NCBI GenBank assembly: GCA_050178385.1
Contig: JBFXGD010000059.1
Coordinates: forward strand, 1 to 19,881
DNA from: Calditrichaceae bacterium
GTDB lineage: Bacteria > Calditrichota > Calditrichia > Calditrichales > JBFXGD01
Direction of reading: 5' to 3'
Length of the DNA stretch: 19,881 nt
Of the stretch, positions 522-12,813 are shown piece after piece. The notes beneath the pieces were generated by a model, which saw only the letters and a program-made list of their open reading frames with translations, searched no databases and was not told the origin of the DNA. The position numbers and the translations under genes are program-made. How positions within the stretch are numbered: the first letter of the stretch is position 1; each line of letters opens with the position of its first letter.

Positions 522-1208
522 TTATTTTCTCTTTTCATCCGAAAAAATTGCGCCGTCTCTAAGGGTTATAACCCGATGCGCGCGTTTTATCACTCTGGCA
601 TCATGAGTTGAAAAAAGAAATGTCATGCCGGATGTCTGATTTAATTCCTCCATCAAATCCAGTAAAGACTCGGCTGATTCGGAGTCCAGATTTGCAGTGG
701 GTTCATCCGCGAGTACAAAGGAGGGCCTTGATGCGAGCGCTCTTGCCACAGCCACACGCTGCTGCTGTCCGCCGGAAAGTTGAGAAGGTCTGGCGTCCGT
801 GCGGTCGCTGAGACCAACGGCATCCAGAAGTTCCAGCGCCCTGCGGTCGCGTTCTTCTTTGGGTATTCTTTGCAGAAGCATGATGAATTCAACATTTTCA
901 CGCGCGTTAAATACCGGTATGAGGTTATACGCCTGGAAAACAAAACCGATATGATGCAGCCTGTAGTTAACAAGTTCACCGGATTTCATTGTGGAAATAT
1001 CAACACCGTCTATGATAACTTTTCCTTTTGTCGGCTTATCCAAACCGCCAATGAGATTGAGCAGTGTGGTCTTCCCGGATCCGGAAGGGCCGACGATCGC
1101 GGTAAATTCTTTTGCTTCAAAATTTAACCCGATATTTCTGACGGCATGAACCGGGACAGCCGTTGTATTATATGTTTTATTCAGTCCTGATAATTCGATA
1201 AGCGCCAT
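522..1208 (-). CDS. ABC transporter ATP-binding protein, LolD/MacB-type
   Basis: Walker A GPSGSGKT, GFVFQAYNL (Q-loop), signature LSGGQQQRV, Walker B LADEPTANLD, H-loop STHD; 228 aa. Confidence 0.97.
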   Translation of the reverse strand: MALIELSGLNKTYNTTAVPVHAVRNIGLNFEAKEFTAIVGPSGSGKTTLLNLIGGLDKPTKGKVIIDGVDISTMKSGELVNYRLHHIGFVFQAYNLIPVFNARENVEFIMLLQRIPKEERDRRALELLDAVGLSDRTDARPSQLSGGQQQRVAVARALASRPSFVLADEPTANLDSESAESLLDLMEELNQTSGMTFLFSTHDARVIKRAHRVITLRDGAIFSDEKRK

Positions 1209-1243
1209 TCTTTCTTCTCCTGATTATATAGATCCTGAACCGG

Positions 1244-2458
1244 CTAAAAAATGCGAATAGCCTCGGACGGCAGCAGGTGAACAGCCTTCCATGCCGGAAG
1301 TACAGCCGCTATATTTGCCGCGATAATGATCATAAATGTGATGATGATATACATTGAAAAGGGTAAAAATGGATACACGACCGCGCTGGCGCCAAAACTT
1401 GCCATGCTGTCGGCGACGATTGAAAAATCCATTCCGGACCGGTAATAATAATAAATGGTTATTCCGCCGATAATCATACCCAAAATACCACCGGTGACTG
1501 AAAGCATTATTGTCTCCCAGAGTATCATCATAAATACTTTGCTTCTTTTCATACCCACGGCAATAAGAATTCCCAGTTCCCTCACGCGTTCGACCACAGA
1601 CATCAGCATTGTATTTGTTATTCCGAAAAGAAGAGCAAGCAGGATTATGGCCACAAATAAGTATGTAAAACCTTCCAGATAAGAAGAGGTAAAGGCAATT
1701 TCCGGGGCGATCTCCATCCAGTTCAGAACCGACAGATTCTGAAAATCCGATTTTATTTCGCCGTAAGCGAGCGGCATAATCCTCGCGGATTTGACACGAA
1801 TGGCAATTTCATGAATAACCGGTTCTGTATCTAATAGCCGGAACAGATCGTTCTGTAATGCAAATACATGCATTTCATCGAACATACTCGATTCCGTTTT
1901 GAAGATCCCGACAACCCGGCAGGCCGTATAAATAATCGATCCGTCCAGTCCCTGGAAACTGAGTACGATTTTTGACCGCAGTTTCAGCTTGAGCCTTTCA
2001 GCCAGCTTCGAGCCGATCACAACCGGATTTTTGTCACTCGTATTAAAGTAACTGCCCTCTGTCAACTTGTTATGAATATCGGTGACTTTTATAGCTTCCG
2101 ACGGATCAATCCCAATAATTTTTACCCCGAATACAGAAGCAGGGGAAGCGCCCATGCCTTCAATGACGGTACGTCCGGAAATATTACTGACTTCTGGCAT
2201 CTTACGGAGTGAATCCATGATCGTGAGGGCATTCGGGATAAATTCTGTGATTTCCTTGTTTTCGGAATACCCATTTTTATGTATTTGTATATGGGAAAGA
2301 TCGCGGTCAATGGCTGAATTGACCATTGACTCGCCAAAACCCATCATGATAGCGCCTGATATCAGTCCTCCCCACAAGCCGAAAATGATGGCGGCAAAGA
2401 CGATAAGACTGCGTTTTTTATTTCGCCAGATATTTTTCCAGGCAAGTGAAATCAGCAT
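1244..2458 (-). CDS. ABC transporter permease, MacB/FtsX/LolE family
   Basis: N-terminal AWKNIWRNKKRS followed by one TM, a large periplasmic domain and three C-terminal TMs with the ERVRELGILIAVG motif; AGGAGG RBS upstream. Confidence 0.95.
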   Translation of the reverse strand: MLISLAWKNIWRNKKRSLIVFAAIIFGLWGGLISGAIMMGFGESMVNSAIDRDLSHIQIHKNGYSENKEITEFIPNALTIMDSLRKMPEVSNISGRTVIEGMGASPASVFGVKIIGIDPSEAIKVTDIHNKLTEGSYFNTSDKNPVVIGSKLAERLKLKLRSKIVLSFQGLDGSIIYTACRVVGIFKTESSMFDEMHVFALQNDLFRLLDTEPVIHEIAIRVKSARIMPLAYGEIKSDFQNLSVLNWMEIAPEIAFTSSYLEGFTYLFVAIILLALLFGITNTMLMSVVERVRELGILIAVGMKRSKVFMMILWETIMLSVTGGILGMIIGGITIYYYYRSGMDFSIVADSMASFGASAVVYPFLPFSMYIIITFMIIIAANIAAVLPAWKAVHLLPSEAIRIF

Positions 2459-2470
2459 TCAGCCTCCTGA

Positions 2471-3685
2471 TTATTTGGTGATTGCTTCGACGGGCATTAA
2501 ACGGTTGATGAATAGAAACGGGTACATCGCCGTGGTTAAAGCAATAATCAGCACAACCACGGATTGTCCCAGGAAAATACCCGGATCAACGCTAAAGGCC
2601 ATGATGGCTTCAATGCCAAGCGTTTCATAGGCTCTTGCCATCTCTCCTGTCAGCCGTATCGGATTATAATAGAAATAATATATGACCGGGACGCTTCCGA
2701 TAAATCCCACGATGACTCCGAGAAAGGAAATCATTATCGATTCAATTGTTGTGACCGCGATAAGTCTCGATTTCTTCATTCCTACTGAGATCAGAATGCC
2801 GAATTCGCGCGTTCTCTCGGTGGTCATCATCATCACCGTTCCAAATACGCCGAAGGCGATGACGATGTAAAGAATGGCAAGCATAATGATTCCGCTTATA
2901 TTGTCCATCTGTATGCTCTGCTCCAGTTCCGGCATCATCTCATTCCAGGTCATAACGGTATAATCAGATCCAAATATCTCATTCACCTCCGTAAGAATTT
3001 TATCCAGATTACTAATATCATTGATCATGACGGAAAGGGATGTGATGCGTCCGAAAGCGGAATATACATCCTGCGCGTTTTGCAGGCTAAGATATACCAT
3101 GGCGTTATTCATTTCGGCGAATGGAAGTTTTACAATACCTTTAACCGGTAGGCGGGCGGCGGCTATTTGCCCGTGATAGCCCTGTCCGTAAATGACAATG
3201 CTGTCTCCAATAGTTACCTTCAGCATTTTTGCCAGCCCTTCGGCAATCAGAATGGCTTTATCGCCGTTTTCAAGATACTGTCCATCGATAACCCTGGCGC
3301 TCAGATTGTTCATCCGGTTTTCAGAATCAGGGTCAATACCGATCACTTGTGATACTTTTGTTAATTTTTTATAGGATATTAAGGCGAATGATTCAAGCCT
3401 GGGAGTGGCGGATGTAACATGCCGGAGGCTGTCAATTTTTGCCATCTGATGATCGTCAATCGCAATGCTGTAGTCAAGCGAGCGATTGTCCCAGTAATCT
3501 TTTCCCTGAATCTGTAGATAACCGGTGAATAGTTTTGCCGATGAGTGAATCATATAACTGTATGATCCCAGCTGACCGGAACGCATAAATACAGCGAGAA
3601 TTACCGCAAAAAATATCGACGCGCCAACAATGATTGTCCGTTTTTTGTTACGCCATAAATTCCGCCAGCTTAATAAAAAGTACAT
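2471..3685 (-). CDS. ABC transporter permease, MacB/FtsX/LolE family (second paralogue)
   Basis: SWRNLWRNKKRT, TM, periplasmic domain, ERTREFGILISVG motif and three TMs; same length (404 aa) as its neighbour; GAGG RBS. Confidence 0.95.
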   Translation of the reverse strand: MYFLLSWRNLWRNKKRTIIVGASIFFAVILAVFMRSGQLGSYSYMIHSSAKLFTGYLQIQGKDYWDNRSLDYSIAIDDHQMAKIDSLRHVTSATPRLESFALISYKKLTKVSQVIGIDPDSENRMNNLSARVIDGQYLENGDKAILIAEGLAKMLKVTIGDSIVIYGQGYHGQIAAARLPVKGIVKLPFAEMNNAMVYLSLQNAQDVYSAFGRITSLSVMINDISNLDKILTEVNEIFGSDYTVMTWNEMMPELEQSIQMDNISGIIMLAILYIVIAFGVFGTVMMMTTERTREFGILISVGMKKSRLIAVTTIESIMISFLGVIVGFIGSVPVIYYFYYNPIRLTGEMARAYETLGIEAIMAFSVDPGIFLGQSVVVLIIALTTAMYPFLFINRLMPVEAITK

Positions 3686-3696
3686 GGCGTTCCTCT

Positions 3697-4452
3697 CTAT
3701 CTGACGCGTTTCATGTTCTGTTCTGAAAAGAACGCGCGGTCGATGTTGACATTAAATTTCATTTCTTCATAAACAAATACGGTCTTTTGTCCCGGTTTAT
3801 CGACCGGAATCATTTCCCAGCGCGCGGGAATGATTCTGTCGTCCATTTTCTTTACATCGCTTCCGGTCATATACTTCACCAGGATCCCATCCTCATCGTA
3901 ATATTCGCTTCTGAGTTCGAGATAGCTGTCTTTGGAGACCCACAACTGAATTTTTCCCCAAACCACACCCGCTTCCGGTTTGGGAATGAGCTCCAGTTTA
4001 TAGCATGCATATTCATTCAACGTCTCTTCACCAAGGATGCGATGCTCATAGTCGTCCACAACCGAAGACTGACGCACAAGATCATCATTTGTAAAATCGG
4101 AACCCATCCAGGACTGCAGCATCATTGACGGCGGAATTTTAATTATTCTTTGTACAGCCGGAATCCAGTTCCATACTTCCTGTTCCCGTTTAAGAGTTAC
4201 CAGGCCCTTGTCTTTTGCCGGGGCAGTGATGAGAACAAGGCCGTAATCCGGTTCCAGCGACCAGATTTTCATGGAGTATTTTCTGGACCAGTCCGGTTTA
4301 ATGATTTCCATCGTCACCTGCGTGATACTGCTGTTTGCCCTTAGCAAATCATTGGCTTTACGGACAATTTCTTTTGCCGTTTCGCCGGTGTTCTGAGAGA
4401 AGGTCAAGACCGGTAATAAAATTAACAGGATCATTCGAAATGTATATTTCAT
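3697..4452 (-). CDS. Outer-membrane lipoprotein-sorting protein / LolA-like periplasmic protein
   Basis: Signal peptide without a lipobox Cys; motifs P..DKG...L...., W.W.P...R..KI.......SWMGSDFTNDD and EYYDEDG, typical of the LolA_like family; sits next to LolE/LolD-like genes. Confidence 0.88.
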   Translation of the reverse strand: MKYTFRMILLILLPVLTFSQNTGETAKEIVRKANDLLRANSSITQVTMEIIKPDWSRKYSMKIWSLEPDYGLVLITAPAKDKGLVTLKREQEVWNWIPAVQRIIKIPPSMMLQSWMGSDFTNDDLVRQSSVVDDYEHRILGEETLNEYACYKLELIPKPEAGVVWGKIQLWVSKDSYLELRSEYYDEDGILVKYMTGSDVKKMDDRIIPARWEMIPVDKPGQKTVFVYEEMKFNVNIDRAFFSEQNMKRVR

Positions 4453-4463
4453 TGCCCCCGCCT

Positions 4464-5078
4464 TTATGGTTTGATGATTCCGTTTAAAAATCCGTCGAGC
4501 ATGGTGTCAGTCGCTTTTTCCGGATCAAATGTATCACGCGCCATAATCCACTGCAAAAGCAGGCCGTCGAGAGCCGCGATCAATACGGATGACATGGCAT
4601 TCGTGTCTAATTCTTTAAAAATGCCGGATTGAATTCCTTCAGTCAGGATTTCTGAAATATATTTACGGTAATTGATATAAATTTGATTCAAATCGATAAT
4701 TTTTAAAATTTTTGAATCTTTGTTTCTGATCCCCTCCGCCCAGAAATCCATCATTATTTCCGCAAATTCTCCTGAATCACTCAAAAACATCCGCAGCGAG
4801 TGCTGAATAAGCTGATTGAGTTTTGATACAGGATCTTTTGAAGAATTAATGGTCGCGCGGGTGGCATTTTCCATGTTTTGGAAATGATAATTAAATGCCG
4901 CGGCAAATATATCCTCCTTGCCGGGAAAGTATTCATAAATCGTGCCTTTCCCGATGCCGGCTTCATTGGCGATATCAGTCATTTTGGCCTTAGCCGCTCC
5001 TTTCGCGGCAAAAACCCGCATGGCGGCAAGCATGATTTCATTCTTTTTTTGTTCTTTGTCAACTATCTTTGGCGACAT
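4464..5078 (-). CDS. TetR/AcrR family transcriptional regulator
   Basis: N-terminal HTH: IMLAAMRVFAAKG...MTDIANEAGIGKGTIYEYFPGKEDI; first gene of the operon. Confidence 0.96.
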   Translation of the reverse strand: MSPKIVDKEQKKNEIMLAAMRVFAAKGAAKAKMTDIANEAGIGKGTIYEYFPGKEDIFAAAFNYHFQNMENATRATINSSKDPVSKLNQLIQHSLRMFLSDSGEFAEIMMDFWAEGIRNKDSKILKIIDLNQIYINYRKYISEILTEGIQSGIFKELDTNAMSSVLIAALDGLLLQWIMARDTFDPEKATDTMLDGFLNGIIKP

Positions 5079-8882: not shown

Positions 8883-8898
8883 GTTAGATTTATCTAAC
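8883..8898. promoter_or_regulatory. DtxR/MntR-type operator palindrome
   Basis: GTTAGATTTATCTAAC (GTTAGAT-tt-ATCTAAC, i.e. TTAG-N6-CTAA core) immediately upstream of a DtxR-family gene and just after a TATTAT hexamer (8875-8880). Confidence 0.75.
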
Positions 8899-8914: not shown

Positions 8915-9559
8915 GTGAATCTTTCTGCCAGTCAGGAAAATTACATCAAGATCATCTGGTATCTCGAGCAGGATAATCAAAAACCTGCTTCAAAAGTTGT
9001 GGCGGACAGGCTGAATGTGAAGCCGCCCACGGCTCTGTCCATGTTTAACCAGCTTGAGAAGATGGAGCTGCTGACTTATAATAAAAACGATGGAGCCCGG
9101 TTAACGGAAAAAGGGGACATGAAAGCCAGAAAACTGGTTCGCAAGCATCGTCTGATTGAAACATTTCTGGAAAATGTTCTGGAAATGGAAGAAAACGTTG
9201 TGCATGAAGAAGCGGAATTGCTGGAGCATGTCATCTCCGATCAGCTGATGTACCGAATCGATGCCTATCTGGGGTTCCCCCGCAAAGATCCGCACGGCAC
9301 CATCATTCCTTCATGGCAAAAAAACGGCGTATTAGTCAGCTTGAATCAAATTGAACAGGAGCACTCTTTCGTGGTCAGAGAATTGAACATGGATGACGAA
9401 ATTTCTGATTATTTTGAGAAAAGCGGTTTGCGTACCGGAACCCTGTGGACGATGGCTGAGGTTTTTCCCGATAAGAGTAGTTTTTTAATCACAAACGGAA
9501 AACGGTTTCTGGCATTATCTTCAGAGACTGCGCAAAAAATAAGTGTAAATTTACAGTAA
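8915..9559 (+). CDS. DtxR/MntR-family metal-dependent transcriptional regulator with a degenerate FeoA/SH3-like C-terminal domain
   Basis: LSASQENYIKII, HTH VADRLNVKPPTALSM, metal/dimerisation motifs RKHRLIETFL, VHEEAELLEH and LGFPRKDPHG. Start placed at GTG 8915 because GGAG lies 6 nt upstream; the track uses TTG 8903. Confidence 0.93.
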   Translation: MNLSASQENYIKIIWYLEQDNQKPASKVVADRLNVKPPTALSMFNQLEKMELLTYNKNDGARLTEKGDMKARKLVRKHRLIETFLENVLEMEENVVHEEAELLEHVISDQLMYRIDAYLGFPRKDPHGTIIPSWQKNGVLVSLNQIEQEHSFVVRELNMDDEISDYFEKSGLRTGTLWTMAEVFPDKSSFLITNGKRFLALSSETAQKISVNLQ

Positions 9560-9581: not shown

Positions 9582-10568
9582 ATGTACTTTATCTATTCGA
9601 TAAGTTTTATAATAGCCGCGGTTCTTCTGTACCTTATCGTGAAGCGTGAAAGGGAAAAGAACTTCCGCTTAACCCGTGTGTATTACGAGGATGCCCTTAA
9701 ATTTATCTATCACCGTCTTGAATCGGGTAGCCGGGCAACTGTTGAAAGTCTCAAGGGCCATTTATCCCTTTCGGCGGGAAAAGTGATGAAGCTGGTGGAT
9801 CTGCTTGAAGATATGGATTTAGTGGAGCTGCGACACGGAGGCATTGAACTGCTTGAAAAGGGCCGTACTTTGGTACTCGAAATTATACGCGCGCACCGGT
9901 TATGGGAAACCTATCTGCAGCATGAGACAGATGTGCCGATTCATAAGATTCACAAATACGCGGATAATGAAGAGCATCATTTACGCGGAGAACGGCTGGA
10001 AGCGCTAAACGCGCATCTTGGTTTTCCGGCTTTTGATCCCCATGGTGATCCGATTCCGACACGAGAAGGGGAACTTGCTCCACTTGACGCGGAGTTTCTC
10101 TCTGACTGGCCCATTGGGGAAGAAGCGCTCATATCACATATTGAGGATGAACCGACAGAACTCAGTAAAAAATTATTTAAACTGGGTTTGCGTGTCGATT
10201 CTAAGATAAAAATCTTAGATAGAAAAAAACGTGAACTGGATGTATTGTATCAGGATAAAAAAATTACACTTGACATGTTTTCAGCGAATAATATCCAGGT
10301 TAAAAAACATCCTGACGGGGAGAAAGCGGCCTATGATACCCTTGATGAGCTTTCGGAAAGCGAATCAGCGGTTATTGCCGGGATTTCCAATAATCTACAG
10401 GGTTTGGCGAGGCGCCGGCTGCTGGATCTCGGGATTACGCCGGGCGTGCGAATTTCAACTATTCTGCGAAGCTCTTTCGGAGGAGATCCGACCGCCTATT
10501 TTGTCAGGGGCGCAAAAATAGCTTTGCGAAGAGAGCAGGCAAAAGATATTTATATAGAAAGACTGTAA
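9582..10568 (+). CDS. Membrane-anchored DtxR-family protein with two FeoA domains
   Basis: N-terminal hydrophobic segment MYFIYSISFIIAAVLLYLIV followed by KRERE; YEDALKFIY; RAHRLWETYL; IHKYADNEEH; LGFPAFDPHGDPIP. Two FeoA-like repeats follow (LSDWPIGEEA...KLFKLGL; LDELSESE...RRRLLDLGITPG...GDPTAYFVRGAKIALRREQA). Confidence 0.9.
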   Translation: MYFIYSISFIIAAVLLYLIVKREREKNFRLTRVYYEDALKFIYHRLESGSRATVESLKGHLSLSAGKVMKLVDLLEDMDLVELRHGGIELLEKGRTLVLEIIRAHRLWETYLQHETDVPIHKIHKYADNEEHHLRGERLEALNAHLGFPAFDPHGDPIPTREGELAPLDAEFLSDWPIGEEALISHIEDEPTELSKKLFKLGLRVDSKIKILDRKKRELDVLYQDKKITLDMFSANNIQVKKHPDGEKAAYDTLDELSESESAVIAGISNNLQGLARRRLLDLGITPGVRISTILRSSFGGDPTAYFVRGAKIALRREQAKDIYIERL

Positions 10569-10615: not shown

Positions 10616-11431
10616 ATGAGTGAAAAAAAAGATTTTAAGATAAATATGGGAAGCGCCTGCGATTCCTGCGGATTTAATCTTCAGCAATTGGGTATCGAGG
10701 TGGATAAATGGGATCATGTCATCGCGCTGGCAGGAAACCCAAATACCGGTAAGAGTACGGTATTTAACCAGCTGACAGGTCTAAAGCAGCACACCGGAAA
10801 CTGGCCGGGAAAAACCGTAACCAGAGCGGAAGGCGGCTTAAAATGGGGGGGGCATACTTATAAACTGGTCGATCTGCCGGGGACTTATTCATTGTTGTCG
10901 GCTTCGGTTGATGAAGAAGTCGCCAGAGATTTTCTTTTGTTTGGCCAGCCGGACTGCACGATTGTGGTGACCGATGCCTCTGTTCTGGAGAGAAATCTGA
11001 ATCTTCTGCTCCAGATTCTGGAGATAACCGATAAAGTGGTGGTCAGCTTGAATCTGGTGGATGAGGCGAAACGCAAAGGGGTGGAAGTAGATCACAGAAG
11101 ACTGTCCAGGGATCTTGGTGTTCCGGTGATTCCCACGGTCGCCCGCAGCGGTCACGGATTAAATTTGCTCCTTGAAAGCGTGGCCGGGGTTATTGACGGC
11201 AGTATTAAGACAAAACCCTACCGGATAAAAGTAAGTGAAAAAATTCAGTCGGCCATTGATGAACTCGTGCCGGAGATCCAAAAAATATTTCCTGATTTAC
11301 CAAATGCCCGATGGGTCGCCATGCGTTTGCTGGATGGTGATATTAAAGTCCAGAAAGCGCTGGAAAAAGGCGAGTGGAATGTCTTTTTAGGGGAATCTTT
11401 GTTTGACACCATCAGGGAGGCGACGGTATGA
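10616..11431 (+). CDS. feoB: FeoB N-terminal GTPase/GDI domain encoded as a stand-alone gene (split FeoB, part 1)
   Basis: G1 GNPNTGKS, switch I/G2 GNWPGKTV, G3 DLPGTYSL, LERNL, G4 NLVD, helical domain RWVAMRLLDGD; N-terminal extension contains CDSC. Confidence 0.93.
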   Translation: MSEKKDFKINMGSACDSCGFNLQQLGIEVDKWDHVIALAGNPNTGKSTVFNQLTGLKQHTGNWPGKTVTRAEGGLKWGGHTYKLVDLPGTYSLLSASVDEEVARDFLLFGQPDCTIVVTDASVLERNLNLLLQILEITDKVVVSLNLVDEAKRKGVEVDHRRLSRDLGVPVIPTVARSGHGLNLLLESVAGVIDGSIKTKPYRIKVSEKIQSAIDELVPEIQKIFPDLPNARWVAMRLLDGDIKVQKALEKGEWNVFLGESLFDTIREATV

Positions 11432-12813
11432 ATCAGACCGGAATTGAATTAATCAAAAAAGCGGATAACCTGCGCAGCCGTCTTGACTCGAATTTCAGAG
11501 ATGTATTTGTGGTAGATATATATAAAAATGTTGAATCGATTTATGAGAAATCGGTAAAAATTACATCCCAAAAAAAATATGATGTGGATCAGAAAATTGA
11601 CCGTATACTCACATCTCCGTTTCTTGGGCTTCCGATTATGTTTCTCCTGCTGGCTCTCGTTTTCTGGCTCACCATTATCGGCGCGAACTATCCTTCGCAG
11701 ATGCTGGCTACGGGTTTCTTCTGGCTTGAGGATCAGATAGCCGGGCTTATGAATGCGGTCAATATTCCATGGTGGATAACCGGATTTTTAATCCATGGTG
11801 TTTATAAAGGTCTGGCATGGGTCATATCCGTGATGTTGCCTCCGATGATGATCTTTTTTCCGGTGTTTACTATCCTGGAAGATTTCGGTTATCTACCGCG
11901 GGTGGCGTTTAATCTGGACTGGCTTTTTAAAAAGGCGGGAGCGCACGGCAAACAGTCGCTTACAATGAGCATGGGTTTTGGATGTAACGCCGCCGCGATT
12001 GTATCCACCCGTATTATCGAATCGCCGAGAGAAAGGCTTATCGCGATTCTTACCAATAACTTTGTTCCGTGCAACGGGAGATTTCCGACGCTGATTATGC
12101 TTTCCGTTGTTTTTGTCGCGGCTGCCTTTCCGCCGGAATTCGCTTCCTTAGTGGCGGCGGGATCGGTTATGGGGATTGTGCTTATTGGGGTGCTTTTCAC
12201 CTTTGTGGTCTCCTGGGTATTATCAAAAACCATTCTCAAAGGAGAAGCGAGCAGTTTCACTCTTGAGCTGCCGCCGTACCGCAGGCCGAATATGTTGAGA
12301 ATATTATATACATCGATTATCGACCGGACCATTTTTGTACTATGGCGGGCGATTCTCATGGCGGCACCTGCAGGGGGCATCATCTGGCTGCTTGGGAATA
12401 TCATGGTTGACGGGCATTCATTGACCTACTGGATTGCCGGTTTTTTGAATCCTTTCGGTCATCTGCTTGGTCTGGACGGGGTCATTCTTCTCGCGTACAT
12501 CGTCGCGATTCCGGCGAATGAAATTGTTGTACCGACCATATTAATGGCCTACGCCAATACATCGACTATGATAGAAATTTCGAATCTTACGCAATTAAAA
12601 GAGCTGTTAGTAGGAAACGCGGGATGGACCATGCTCACCGCGGTAAATCTGATGCTGTTCTCGTTACTGCATAATCCGTGTTCAACAACAATCATGACCA
12701 TCTGGAAAGAAACAAAAAGCGCCAAATGGACAATCATAGGCGCGCTAATGCCTCTTTCCCTGGCATTTATCGTCACCTTTATCGTGGCGCAGGTTGTAAG
12801 GTTCTTTTTCTAA
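11428..12813 (+). CDS. feoB: FeoB membrane (Gate) domain encoded as a stand-alone gene (split FeoB, part 2)
   Basis: KIDRILTSPFLGLPI, LEDFGYLPRVAF, GFGCN, PCNGR, FTLELPPYRRP, PANEIV, HNPC; multiple TMs. Its ATG overlaps the upstream TGA (ATGA) and has a GGGAGG RBS. Confidence 0.93.
   Translation: MNQTGIELIKKADNLRSRLDSNFRDVFVVDIYKNVESIYEKSVKITSQKKYDVDQKIDRILTSPFLGLPIMFLLLALVFWLTIIGANYPSQMLATGFFWLEDQIAGLMNAVNIPWWITGFLIHGVYKGLAWVISVMLPPMMIFFPVFTILEDFGYLPRVAFNLDWLFKKAGAHGKQSLTMSMGFGCNAAAIVSTRIIESPRERLIAILTNNFVPCNGRFPTLIMLSVVFVAAAFPPEFASLVAAGSVMGIVLIGVLFTFVVSWVLSKTILKGEASSFTLELPPYRRPNMLRILYTSIIDRTIFVLWRAILMAAPAGGIIWLLGNIMVDGHSLTYWIAGFLNPFGHLLGLDGVILLAYIVAIPANEIVVPTILMAYANTSTMIEISNLTQLKELLVGNAGWTMLTAVNLMLFSLLHNPCSTTIMTIWKETKSAKWTIIGALMPLSLAFIVTFIVAQVVRFFF

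Follow-up and report, generated by a model that had tools for sequence, protein, structure and literature searches.

What is the output of a metal sensor of the DtxR repressor family that carries a predicted membrane anchor, ends in a FeoA domain and is encoded directly before feoB? This question is raised by a gene for a DtxR-like protein of 328 amino acids (positions 9582..10568, + strand, ATG start) in a stretch of 19,881 nucleotides from a Calditrichaceae bacterium (assembly GCA_050178385.1, contig JBFXGD010000059.1), the whole of which is called the window below. The gene belongs to a cassette of four closely packed genes on the + strand, encoding a canonical DtxR/MntR, the anchored DtxR-FeoA protein, the FeoB G protein and the FeoB membrane part, and it begins 22 nt past the end of the canonical paralogue gene. 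The reading that we favor, at a probability of about one in two, is that the anchored protein is a Mn/Fe-sensing FeoA subunit which gates FeoB, and that the soluble paralogue represses transcription at a palindrome at 8883-8898. The locus and its relatives already display the architecture, the anchor, the kept metal ligands, the decayed DNA contacts, the strict linkage to feoB and the lack of a nearby feoA. A metal-linked FeoA role is the best reading because the DNA-contact surface is unconserved, the metal sites are kept and the protein is the sole FeoA of the feoB operon.

The N-terminus distinguishes the protein from an ordinary repressor. Residues 2-21 (9585..9644, + strand) form a predicted signal-anchor transmembrane helix, as indicated by hydropathy, topology statistics, the coding signature and the AlphaFold2 (AF2) model, and residues 22-35 (9645..9686, + strand) form a basic juxtamembrane linker, which is itself helical and runs on into helix 1 of the winged helix. 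The hydrophobic N-terminus and the basic stretch behind it, pointed out in the initial annotation, are borne out by the numbers: the mean Kyte-Doolittle (KD) hydropathy of the 19-mer at residues 2-20 is 2.42, KREREKNFRLTR follows, and the net charge of the 15 residues after the hydrophobic segment is +4 (family mean +3.9). One might argue that the true start lies downstream of this segment, as the initial annotation had itself allowed. Such a start-codon artefact was ruled out by comparison with a genome of the same genus (94% identity). There nine of the differences in the first 40 codons are synonymous and three (I>V, I>L, L>F) are conservative, codon 20, whose GTG is the one alternative start close by, reads GTC, and the AAGGGAATTT-ATG ribosome-binding context is identical, with divergent DNA further upstream. 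The coding signature therefore supports the ATG at 9582. Six more relatives have a similar hydrophobic segment in an open frame upstream of the EDALK motif.

Relatives were collected by a protein search, in which 8000 candidates were scored, 5463 of them at E <= 1e-3, and the best 120 listed, and by a scan of species genomes, which gave at least 603 stretches, the best 80 of which, in 79 loci, were analysed. An N-terminal 19-mer with a KD value of at least 1.6 is present in 98 of the 120 best homologues; several of the 22 below this cut-off resemble miscalled starts, and about 14 are truly anchor-less. Counted by locus, a motif filter classified 57 related loci; one is truncated at a contig end, and of the remaining 56, 53 carry the anchor. 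Most homologues thus have the predicted transmembrane segment, the lack of which had been named as another way in which the idea could fail. Anchor-less members (P0026, P0047, P0071, P0084, P0095, P0101, P0109 and loci L074 and L125) start with basic segments rich in Trp, Arg and Phe (such as WWKRLRW and FWSGFRPF), which could be interfacial amphipathic helices. FeoB is fused in all three anchor-less classified loci.

The orientation of the segment was read from 47 aligned members. The flank before the uncharged run has a mean of 1.9 residues and a net charge of -0.5, the run itself has a mean length of 23.2 residues (range 19-30), and a charge of at least +2 is found within the following 15 residues in 41 of the 47. 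Because the N-flank is short and near-neutral, the uncharged run long and the basic cluster placed behind it, the segment is assigned as an N-out/C-in signal anchor by these topology statistics. A Sec signal peptide was considered and ruled out on the same grounds: the n-region is not positive, the uncharged run spans 19-30 residues and the basic cluster lies downstream.

The sensor part of the protein is complete. The metal-binding/dimerisation domain occupies residues 96-165 (9867..10076, + strand), where Pfam Fe_dep_repr_C (PF02742) is matched at residues 92-160 with an E-value of 6e-20 and 71 bits against a cut-off of 27, and contains the invariant residues H105, E109, H124, E131, H132, D152, H154 and D156. 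It is followed by the SH3-like domain 3, the first FeoA-type domain (residues 173-243, 10098..10310, + strand), with the family-specific motif H186-I-E-D-E-P191, and by the true FeoA domain, FeoA-2 (residues 253-328, 10338..10565, + strand), which is basic (family mean net charge +4.0) and preceded by a low-confidence linker (residues 246-249, predicted local distance difference test score (pLDDT) below 50). Pfam FeoA (PF04023) is matched in two stretches (4.6e-26, 91 bits against a cut-off of 23), best at 253-327, the last domain also matches the FeoA structures 2k4y (9e-12) and 7r7b (1.4e-11) in the PDB, and the AF2 model has two SH3-like barrels, at 181-242 and 262-327. An intact metal domain and a canonical last FeoA domain had both been claimed in the initial annotation, and rightly so. 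Its further description of two FeoA domains needs a correction: the second is a true extra FeoA, the first is the SH3-like third domain that DtxR-family proteins ordinarily have. Nor is the pair a novelty, since twin C-terminal FeoA domains are already known from PgMntR (PG1044) of Porphyromonas gingivalis, which is encoded in an operon with the Mn importer FeoB2 (Zhang et al., 2016, PMC4805248).

The AF2 model of the 328-residue protein has a pLDDT of 93.8 and a predicted template-modelling score (pTM) of 0.81. Its closest fold is MtMntR (5zr6; TM-score 0.87-0.89, root-mean-square deviation 2.0-2.2 Å), followed by SloR and ScaR, over about 213 columns, and the family profile matches 5zr4 (8e-41) and 8pvt (4e-36), then ScaR, SloR, IdeR and DtxR. 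Among at least 92 diverse members, D37, D/E128, E131, H132, H105, E109, H124, D152, H154, D156 and D189 are invariant or nearly so. The ligand set is without the Met and Cys of Fe-type DtxR and resembles that of Mn sensors; it matches the ligands of PgMntR and DR2539 by constant numbering offsets, not by direct alignment. Ligand set and nearest solved folds are thus of the Mn-sensor type; the cognate metal may be Mn or Fe.

Conservation of these ligands bears on the view that the DtxR-like body is a constitutive tether, a dimeric membrane scaffold that keeps FeoA beside FeoB and whose metal sites are structural and non-regulatory. FeoA and FeoB do occur as natural fusions, in one of which GTP-bound FeoB is stabilised by FeoA (PMC8980893); moreover, PgMntR is described as dimeric even when metal-free, with a secondary structure hardly altered by metal (PMC4805248). 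However, all primary and ancillary ligands, including D37 of helix 1 and D189 of the SH3 domain, are kept invariant or nearly so, as expected of a working sensor, and three extra domains would be superfluous for a mere tether. We consider this view improbable.

The winged helix has taken a different course from the metal sites. This divergent helix-turn-helix (HTH) domain (residues 36-95, 9687..9866, + strand) keeps the helix-1 ligand D37 and loses the DNA-contact residues. Its recognition helix reads SAGKVMKLV, against KPPTALSM in the canonical paralogue, exactly as the initial annotation had read both. Pfam PF01325 gives no match in the anchored protein at E <= 0.01, nor is it found in any of the 240 homologues listed by the searches with the anchored protein and with a Bacteroidales member, the latter of which gave close relatives of the Marinilabiliales type; PF02742 and PF04023 are found in 120/120 of the best homologues of the former, PF01325 in 0/120. 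The fold is homologous nevertheless, as the family profile aligns through the entire winged helix, from EDALK on, to DtxR-family structures.

Conservation of the HTH was compared with that of the metal-site residues, a check proposed in the initial annotation, for 63 family rows and 30 canonical paralogues of the same loci; two of the 63 (L067 and L079) are mislabelled canonical proteins, the effect of which can only be to blunt the contrast. The entropy of the recognition helix is 2.50 bits in the family versus 1.46 bits in the canonical proteins, and that of the wing 3.17 versus 1.86 bits. The corresponding values are 1.33 versus 1.48 bits for helix 1 and 1.45 versus 1.34 bits for the metal/dimerisation domain. 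The net charge of the winged helix is -2.0 in the family versus +1.4 in the canonical paralogues. In the profile alignment, A38, D73 and L74 of the anchored protein occupy the positions of Tyr12, Arg46 and Lys47 of DR2539, which are reported as DNA-phosphate contacts (bioRxiv 10.1101/2024.02.12.579695), and the canonical paralogues have Tyr (93%) and Lys at those contact columns. These data support the notion that the DNA-contact surface of the anchored family is no longer conserved, in contrast to its metal sites. The earlier suggestion that the protein may no longer bind DNA is thus strengthened to that extent, by comparison of sequences.

The junction of anchor and winged helix points in the same direction. 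The AF2 model has a single unbroken helix at residues 2-47 (pLDDT 94-98), in which membrane helix, basic linker and helix 1 are joined. A member with a long linker, P0157 of Saccharicrinis fermentans (model pLDDT 93.2), has the membrane helix at 9-27, a break of five residues and then a helix at 33-61, by which helix 1 is lengthened by 17 residues upstream of EDALK. For DtxR it is reported that the first six residues must unwind, since they would otherwise clash sterically with DNA (PMC7762939), and Ser6 and Ser8 of DR2539 are described as contacting DNA phosphates (bioRxiv 10.1101/2024.02.12.579695). In the models, a rigid helical extension which reaches the membrane about ten residues further on would therefore be hard to reconcile with canonical DNA docking.

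If the anchored protein does not bind DNA, control of transcription should be sought elsewhere, and a candidate operator of the DtxR type lies upstream of the cassette: the perfect 7-2-7 palindrome GTTAGAT-TT-ATCTAAC at 8883..8898. The 3.9-Mb assembly has a single copy of the exact palindrome core, TTAGATNNATCTAA, and near-matches in the genome are fewer than in the control (5 versus 12), so that no regulon can be inferred from it. Of 59 related loci, 24 have a box of the form TTAG-N4-8-CTAA ahead of the cassette, the background being 0.01 per 210 nt (15 boxes in 370 kb). A canonical paralogue, defined as adjacent when a same-strand tblastn match of at least 55 bits ends less than 600 bp before the anchored gene, is found in 19 of the 59 loci with enough upstream DNA and within the 6-kb flanks in 29 of 62; the box accompanies 9/19 loci with an adjacent paralogue and 15/40 without one. 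The box takes the form TTAGG-N4-CCTAA, often lengthened to AATTTAGG...CCTAAATT, and lies 200-260 nt upstream of the cassettes; it is conserved across Acidobacteriota, Chloroflexota, Gemmatimonadota, Ignavibacteria and Bacteroidota.

The operator type TTAG-N6-CTAA and the canonical recognition helix are both conserved across phyla, and the helix of the anchored family is variable. The conserved box type thus fits the canonical recognition helix and not that of the anchored family. Where the box occurs and no canonical gene is adjacent, a PF01325-positive DtxR is encoded at another place in all five genomes tested (E <= 1e-18), and in three further genomes PF01325 matches only frames of 229-245 residues, never the anchored protein. 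As a canonical DtxR is encoded elsewhere, DNA binding by the anchored protein is unneeded, though it may still occur.

That possibility takes its most definite form in a membrane-tethered autorepressor, in which the anchored protein would bind its own operon's operator from the membrane, much like ToxR or CadC, and FeoA-2 would stabilise the fold or add DNA affinity. The following points speak for it or weigh against the gating of FeoB by a protein that has left DNA. An anchor alone is compatible with DNA binding, as membrane-bound regulators of the ToxR/CadC type illustrate. The family as a whole has kept the winged-helix fold, at high confidence, and this fold must therefore be under selection for something. 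The operator box stands directly upstream of the anchored gene in 15 of the 40 loci that have no adjacent canonical paralogue, which is compatible with autoregulation. The steric argument given above is built on secondary-structure output and published descriptions, not on coordinates. Finally, PgMntR, the only characterised twin-FeoA protein of the DtxR family, shows by analogy that a related winged helix can bind DNA in vitro: in electrophoretic mobility shift assays it is reported to bind its own feoB2-operon promoter at 0.7-1 uM, even metal-free, Mn2+ strengthening and Fe2+ weakening the binding, and removal of FeoA-2 is reported to abolish both Mn binding and DNA binding (PMC4805248).

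An autorepressor would, however, have to work with a recognition helix and a wing that vary despite an operator type conserved across phyla, with replaced phosphate contacts (A38, D73, L74), with an acidic winged helix, and with a helix 1 that runs into the membrane at the very end that abuts DNA in DtxR and DR2539. It would do so in the presence of canonical DtxR genes (those of the five genomes tested and of the three in which PF01325 marks only the shorter frames), and it would leave the operon without a FeoA partner unless the anchored protein does both jobs. We therefore regard an autorepressor as rather unlikely.

A gate on FeoB, in turn, is supported by linkage to feoB. The fused gene is present in 68 of the 79 loci, and a FeoB G domain lies directly downstream in 68/68, at a gap of -49 to +163 bp. 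A search of the 6 kb around with a hidden Markov model of FeoA-2 (E <= 1e-16) found no other FeoA domain in these 68 loci, and in the window the FeoA-type domains are confined to the two DtxR-like genes. Since feoB is always next and no other FeoA domain lies within 6 kb, the C-terminal domain is, on the evidence of gene order, the cognate FeoA of the adjacent FeoB. With stand-alone FeoA and with the FeoA joined to the N-terminus of FeoB in Bacteroides fragilis NFeoAB (PMC8980893) it shares the passing of the Pfam threshold, the match to FeoA structures and the gene position directly before feoB; it differs from them in being neither a small free protein nor fused to FeoB, but joined to an anchored metal sensor.

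The FeoB of the window is split into a G protein and a membrane part. Of 69 loci (the 68 and L067), 41 have a split FeoB and 21 a fused one, and in the other 7 FeoB is truncated where the contig ends. The split occurs in differing frames across loci; because it recurs in 41/69 loci and in these differing frames, it is not a sequencing artefact. No description of a split FeoB came up in a literature search for one. The initial annotation had seen in the protein a metal-gated FeoA adaptor that recruits the free GTPase to the membrane. The metal-linked FeoA role has become the reading preferred here, but recruitment of a free GTPase cannot be the general purpose of the anchor. The anchor is present in 30/30 classifiable loci with a split FeoB and likewise in 16/19 with a fused one, and two loci (L127 and L128) have a soluble regulator next to a split FeoB. 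Split FeoB was thus rejected as the explanation of the anchor.

Gating of FeoB by the anchored protein could proceed as follows. A dimer would be held at the inner face of the membrane by its single N-terminal helix. Cytoplasmic Mn2+ or Fe2+ would fill the primary and ancillary sites and so lock the winged-helix, dimerisation and SH3 domains together, as in repressors of the DtxR family. The output of this switch, instead of DNA binding, would be how available the basic C-terminal FeoA is to the FeoB G domain or how it is positioned relative to it, so that import would be throttled post-translationally when metal is replete; transcriptional control would be left to the soluble canonical paralogue at the palindrome 8883-8898. 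That FeoA-2 binds FeoB, that metal alters this binding and that the metal-bound state is the off state are the steps which we infer here.

A more detailed version assigns a task to the retained winged helix as well. The FeoB G domain is extended at its N-terminus by about 30 residues, with CxxC at residues 15-18 (nt 10658-10669) in the window; CxxC precedes the G1 motif in 59 of the 69 related loci, often as CxxCPxH, together with an L-x-x-L-G motif. In a sample of 301 Bacteroidales genomes, the extension is present in 7/7 loci of the anchored family and in 0/2 loci with a twin-FeoA protein of the canonical HTH type. This co-occurrence with the anchored family is suggestive. The acidic winged helix, which formerly bound DNA and is now kept beneath the membrane, might dock onto the CxxC extension, FeoA-2 might engage the G domain, and Mn or Fe might then open or close FeoB, the whole valve having arisen from repressor duplication and subfunctionalisation. 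We put this forward as a tentative possibility, for which the odds are clearly below even.

The adjacency of two proteins with a common dimerisation domain invites one more explanation, also raised in the initial annotation, namely that the anchored protein is an anti-repressor, which pairs with the soluble canonical paralogue in a heterodimer and so keeps it sequestered at the membrane. The genes are indeed neighbours here, and the paralogue is found within 6 kb in 29/62 loci. Yet over half of the loci have no adjacent paralogue, the two proteins of the window are only 23% identical, related proteins of the two kinds stand on opposite sides of a long and well-supported branch, and the strict feoB linkage and the FeoA domain are left unexplained. 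As the paralogue is adjacent in only 19/59 loci and within 6 kb in only 29/62, sequestration cannot be the general function of the family, and we think it highly improbable here too.

The branch just mentioned comes from two trees, both of them quick, unrooted IQ-TREE runs with support by the Shimodaira-Hasegawa-like approximate likelihood ratio test (SH-aLRT) only; the first was calculated without the canonical-HTH twin-FeoA rows L127 and L128 and included the canonical proteins L067 and L079 under the label 'TM'. The branch separating the anchored family from all canonical-HTH proteins has an SH-aLRT support of 99-100. The 301 Bacteroidales genomes yielded a twin-FeoA gene in nine, with feoB downstream in 9/9. 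Six of these genes encode anchored proteins, one (L125) has no transmembrane segment yet belongs to the anchored family, and two (L127 and L128) are of the canonical type: they have a canonical recognition helix and wing, lack the anchor and the HIEDEP motif and lie upstream of a split feoB without the CxxC extension. In the tree, L127 and L128 branch among the canonical paralogues, and their placement suggests that the fusion of FeoA to DtxR arose more than once. An Atlas search returned clusters of about 315 residues with PF01325, at a score of 0.82, which we note as a lead only. Actinomycetospora chlora (L067, 5965-7837) has an unfused order of canonical dtxR (239 residues), feoA (a frame of 102 residues), feoB-G with CxxC and feoB-TM.

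How far the anchored protein resembles systems already known can be stated with PgMntR as the nearest case. Both have a DtxR-family body with two FeoA-type domains and an operon with a FeoB-type transporter. PgMntR is described as a soluble dimer with 3 Mn or 2 Fe per monomer (PMC4805248), and its listed ligands, D19 and then H85, E89, H104, C108, E111, H112, D132, H134, H166, D169 and E170, match invariant residues of the anchored protein at offsets of +18 and then +20. By the published numbering, the H-x-x-D-E of the SH3 domain is common to both, and PgMntR has Cys where the anchored protein has Asp128 and most of the anchored family has Glu. By the same numbering, PgMntR has 18 fewer residues ahead of helix 1 and thus lacks an anchor. 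It binds promoter DNA in vitro; its comparison with the anchored protein here is by published numbering. PgMntR was purified in soluble form, whereas the anchored protein has a conserved N-terminal anchor, as predicted from its sequence. TM-less relatives occur among the 301 Bacteroidales genomes, none of them with the published numbering of PgMntR.

The three-domain Mn sensors MtMntR (5zr4/5zr6), DR2539 (8pvt), ScaR and SloR are the best profile and fold matches and share Asp/Glu ligands at the primary site in place of Met/Cys; the ancillary ligands of DR2539 are of the same type, at an offset of +26. Those repressors are soluble, keep the DNA contacts and have no fourth domain; the anchored protein differs in its anchor, extended helix 1, altered contacts and additional FeoA domain. 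A DNA-binding-type domain attached to a membrane is also found in ToxR and CadC, which have a periplasmic sensor domain, and in YtgC-YtgR of Chlamydia, where a DtxR-like repressor is made fused to the permease YtgC and freed from this multi-pass protein by cleavage, a possible exception to the rule that DtxR-family proteins are soluble. The anchored protein differs from all of these by a bare N-terminal anchor that runs into helix 1 and by unconserved DNA contacts. Searches of the literature for DtxR proteins with a membrane anchor or a fused FeoA found PgMntR and nowhere a description of the anchor, and a survey of FeoA fusions states that DtxR-linked FeoA proteins were explicitly excluded (PMC8980893).

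The family is widespread. At E <= 1e-3, a profile restricted to the anchor and winged helix matches 883 clusters (50% identity), of which 473 also pass E <= 1e-10; the matches begin close to residue 1. The best 80 stretches of the genome scan come from Acidobacteriota, Gemmatimonadota, Chloroflexota, Ignavibacteria, Bacteroidota, Calditrichaceae and Verrucomicrobiota, and the gene is present in 21 of 41 relatives of the genome from which the window was taken. Carriers in culture are Saccharicrinis fermentans, Marinifilum, Labilibaculum, Maribellus mangrovi, Mangrovibacterium and two Maribacter species; the carrier called Melioribacter roseus is a metagenome-assembled genome so named.

FeoB is the most widespread bacterial importer of Fe2+ and Mn2+, and a large natural family that joins FeoA to a complete metal sensor at the membrane points to FeoA as a regulatory input of FeoB. 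If the anchored protein indeed gates FeoB, it would clearly exemplify a repressor fold that has switched its output from DNA to a transporter, and would form a post-translational feedback valve made of one protein. Thousands of entries named 'DtxR family Mn-dependent transcriptional regulator' may not be transcription factors, and the adjacent FeoB may import Mn and not Fe. In any case the family is widespread enough to affect the annotation and study of Feo systems.

The canonical soluble three-domain DtxR/MntR paralogue (8915..9559, + strand) is listed from TTG 8903, but GTG 8915, preceded by GGAG, is the more likely start judging from the sequence; it matches PF01325 (1.2e-13) and PF02742 (2.7e-27), and FeoA/SH3 weakly (1.5e-5). 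The FeoB G-domain protein with its N-terminal extension (271 residues, 10616..11431, + strand) matches Pfam FeoB_N at 3e-59. The FeoB membrane part (461 residues, 11428..12813, + strand), the start of which overlaps the stop of the G protein (ATGA), matches Gate (1.8e-26), FeoB_C (4.9e-16) and positions 220-594 of TIGR00437.

The genes flanking the cassette, of the penicillin amidase and isoamylase type, are unrelated to it. An Rfam scan of the window found no RNA family, hence no metal riboswitch that would name the metal, and a scan for promoters and terminators did no better than with shuffled sequences. At 522-5078 on the - strand, the window has an ordinary cluster of a TetR-family regulator, a LolA-like protein, two permeases of the MacB/FtsX type and an ABC ATPase. 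In keeping with a division of labour, the same genome has a second, conventional regulator-feoA-feoB locus for metal uptake on contig C190 (locus L085, 544-3471), with a DtxR/MntR-like open frame of 206 residues, a free FeoA (95-residue open reading frame) and a one-piece FeoB, which is without the N-terminal extension and runs past the end of the locus.

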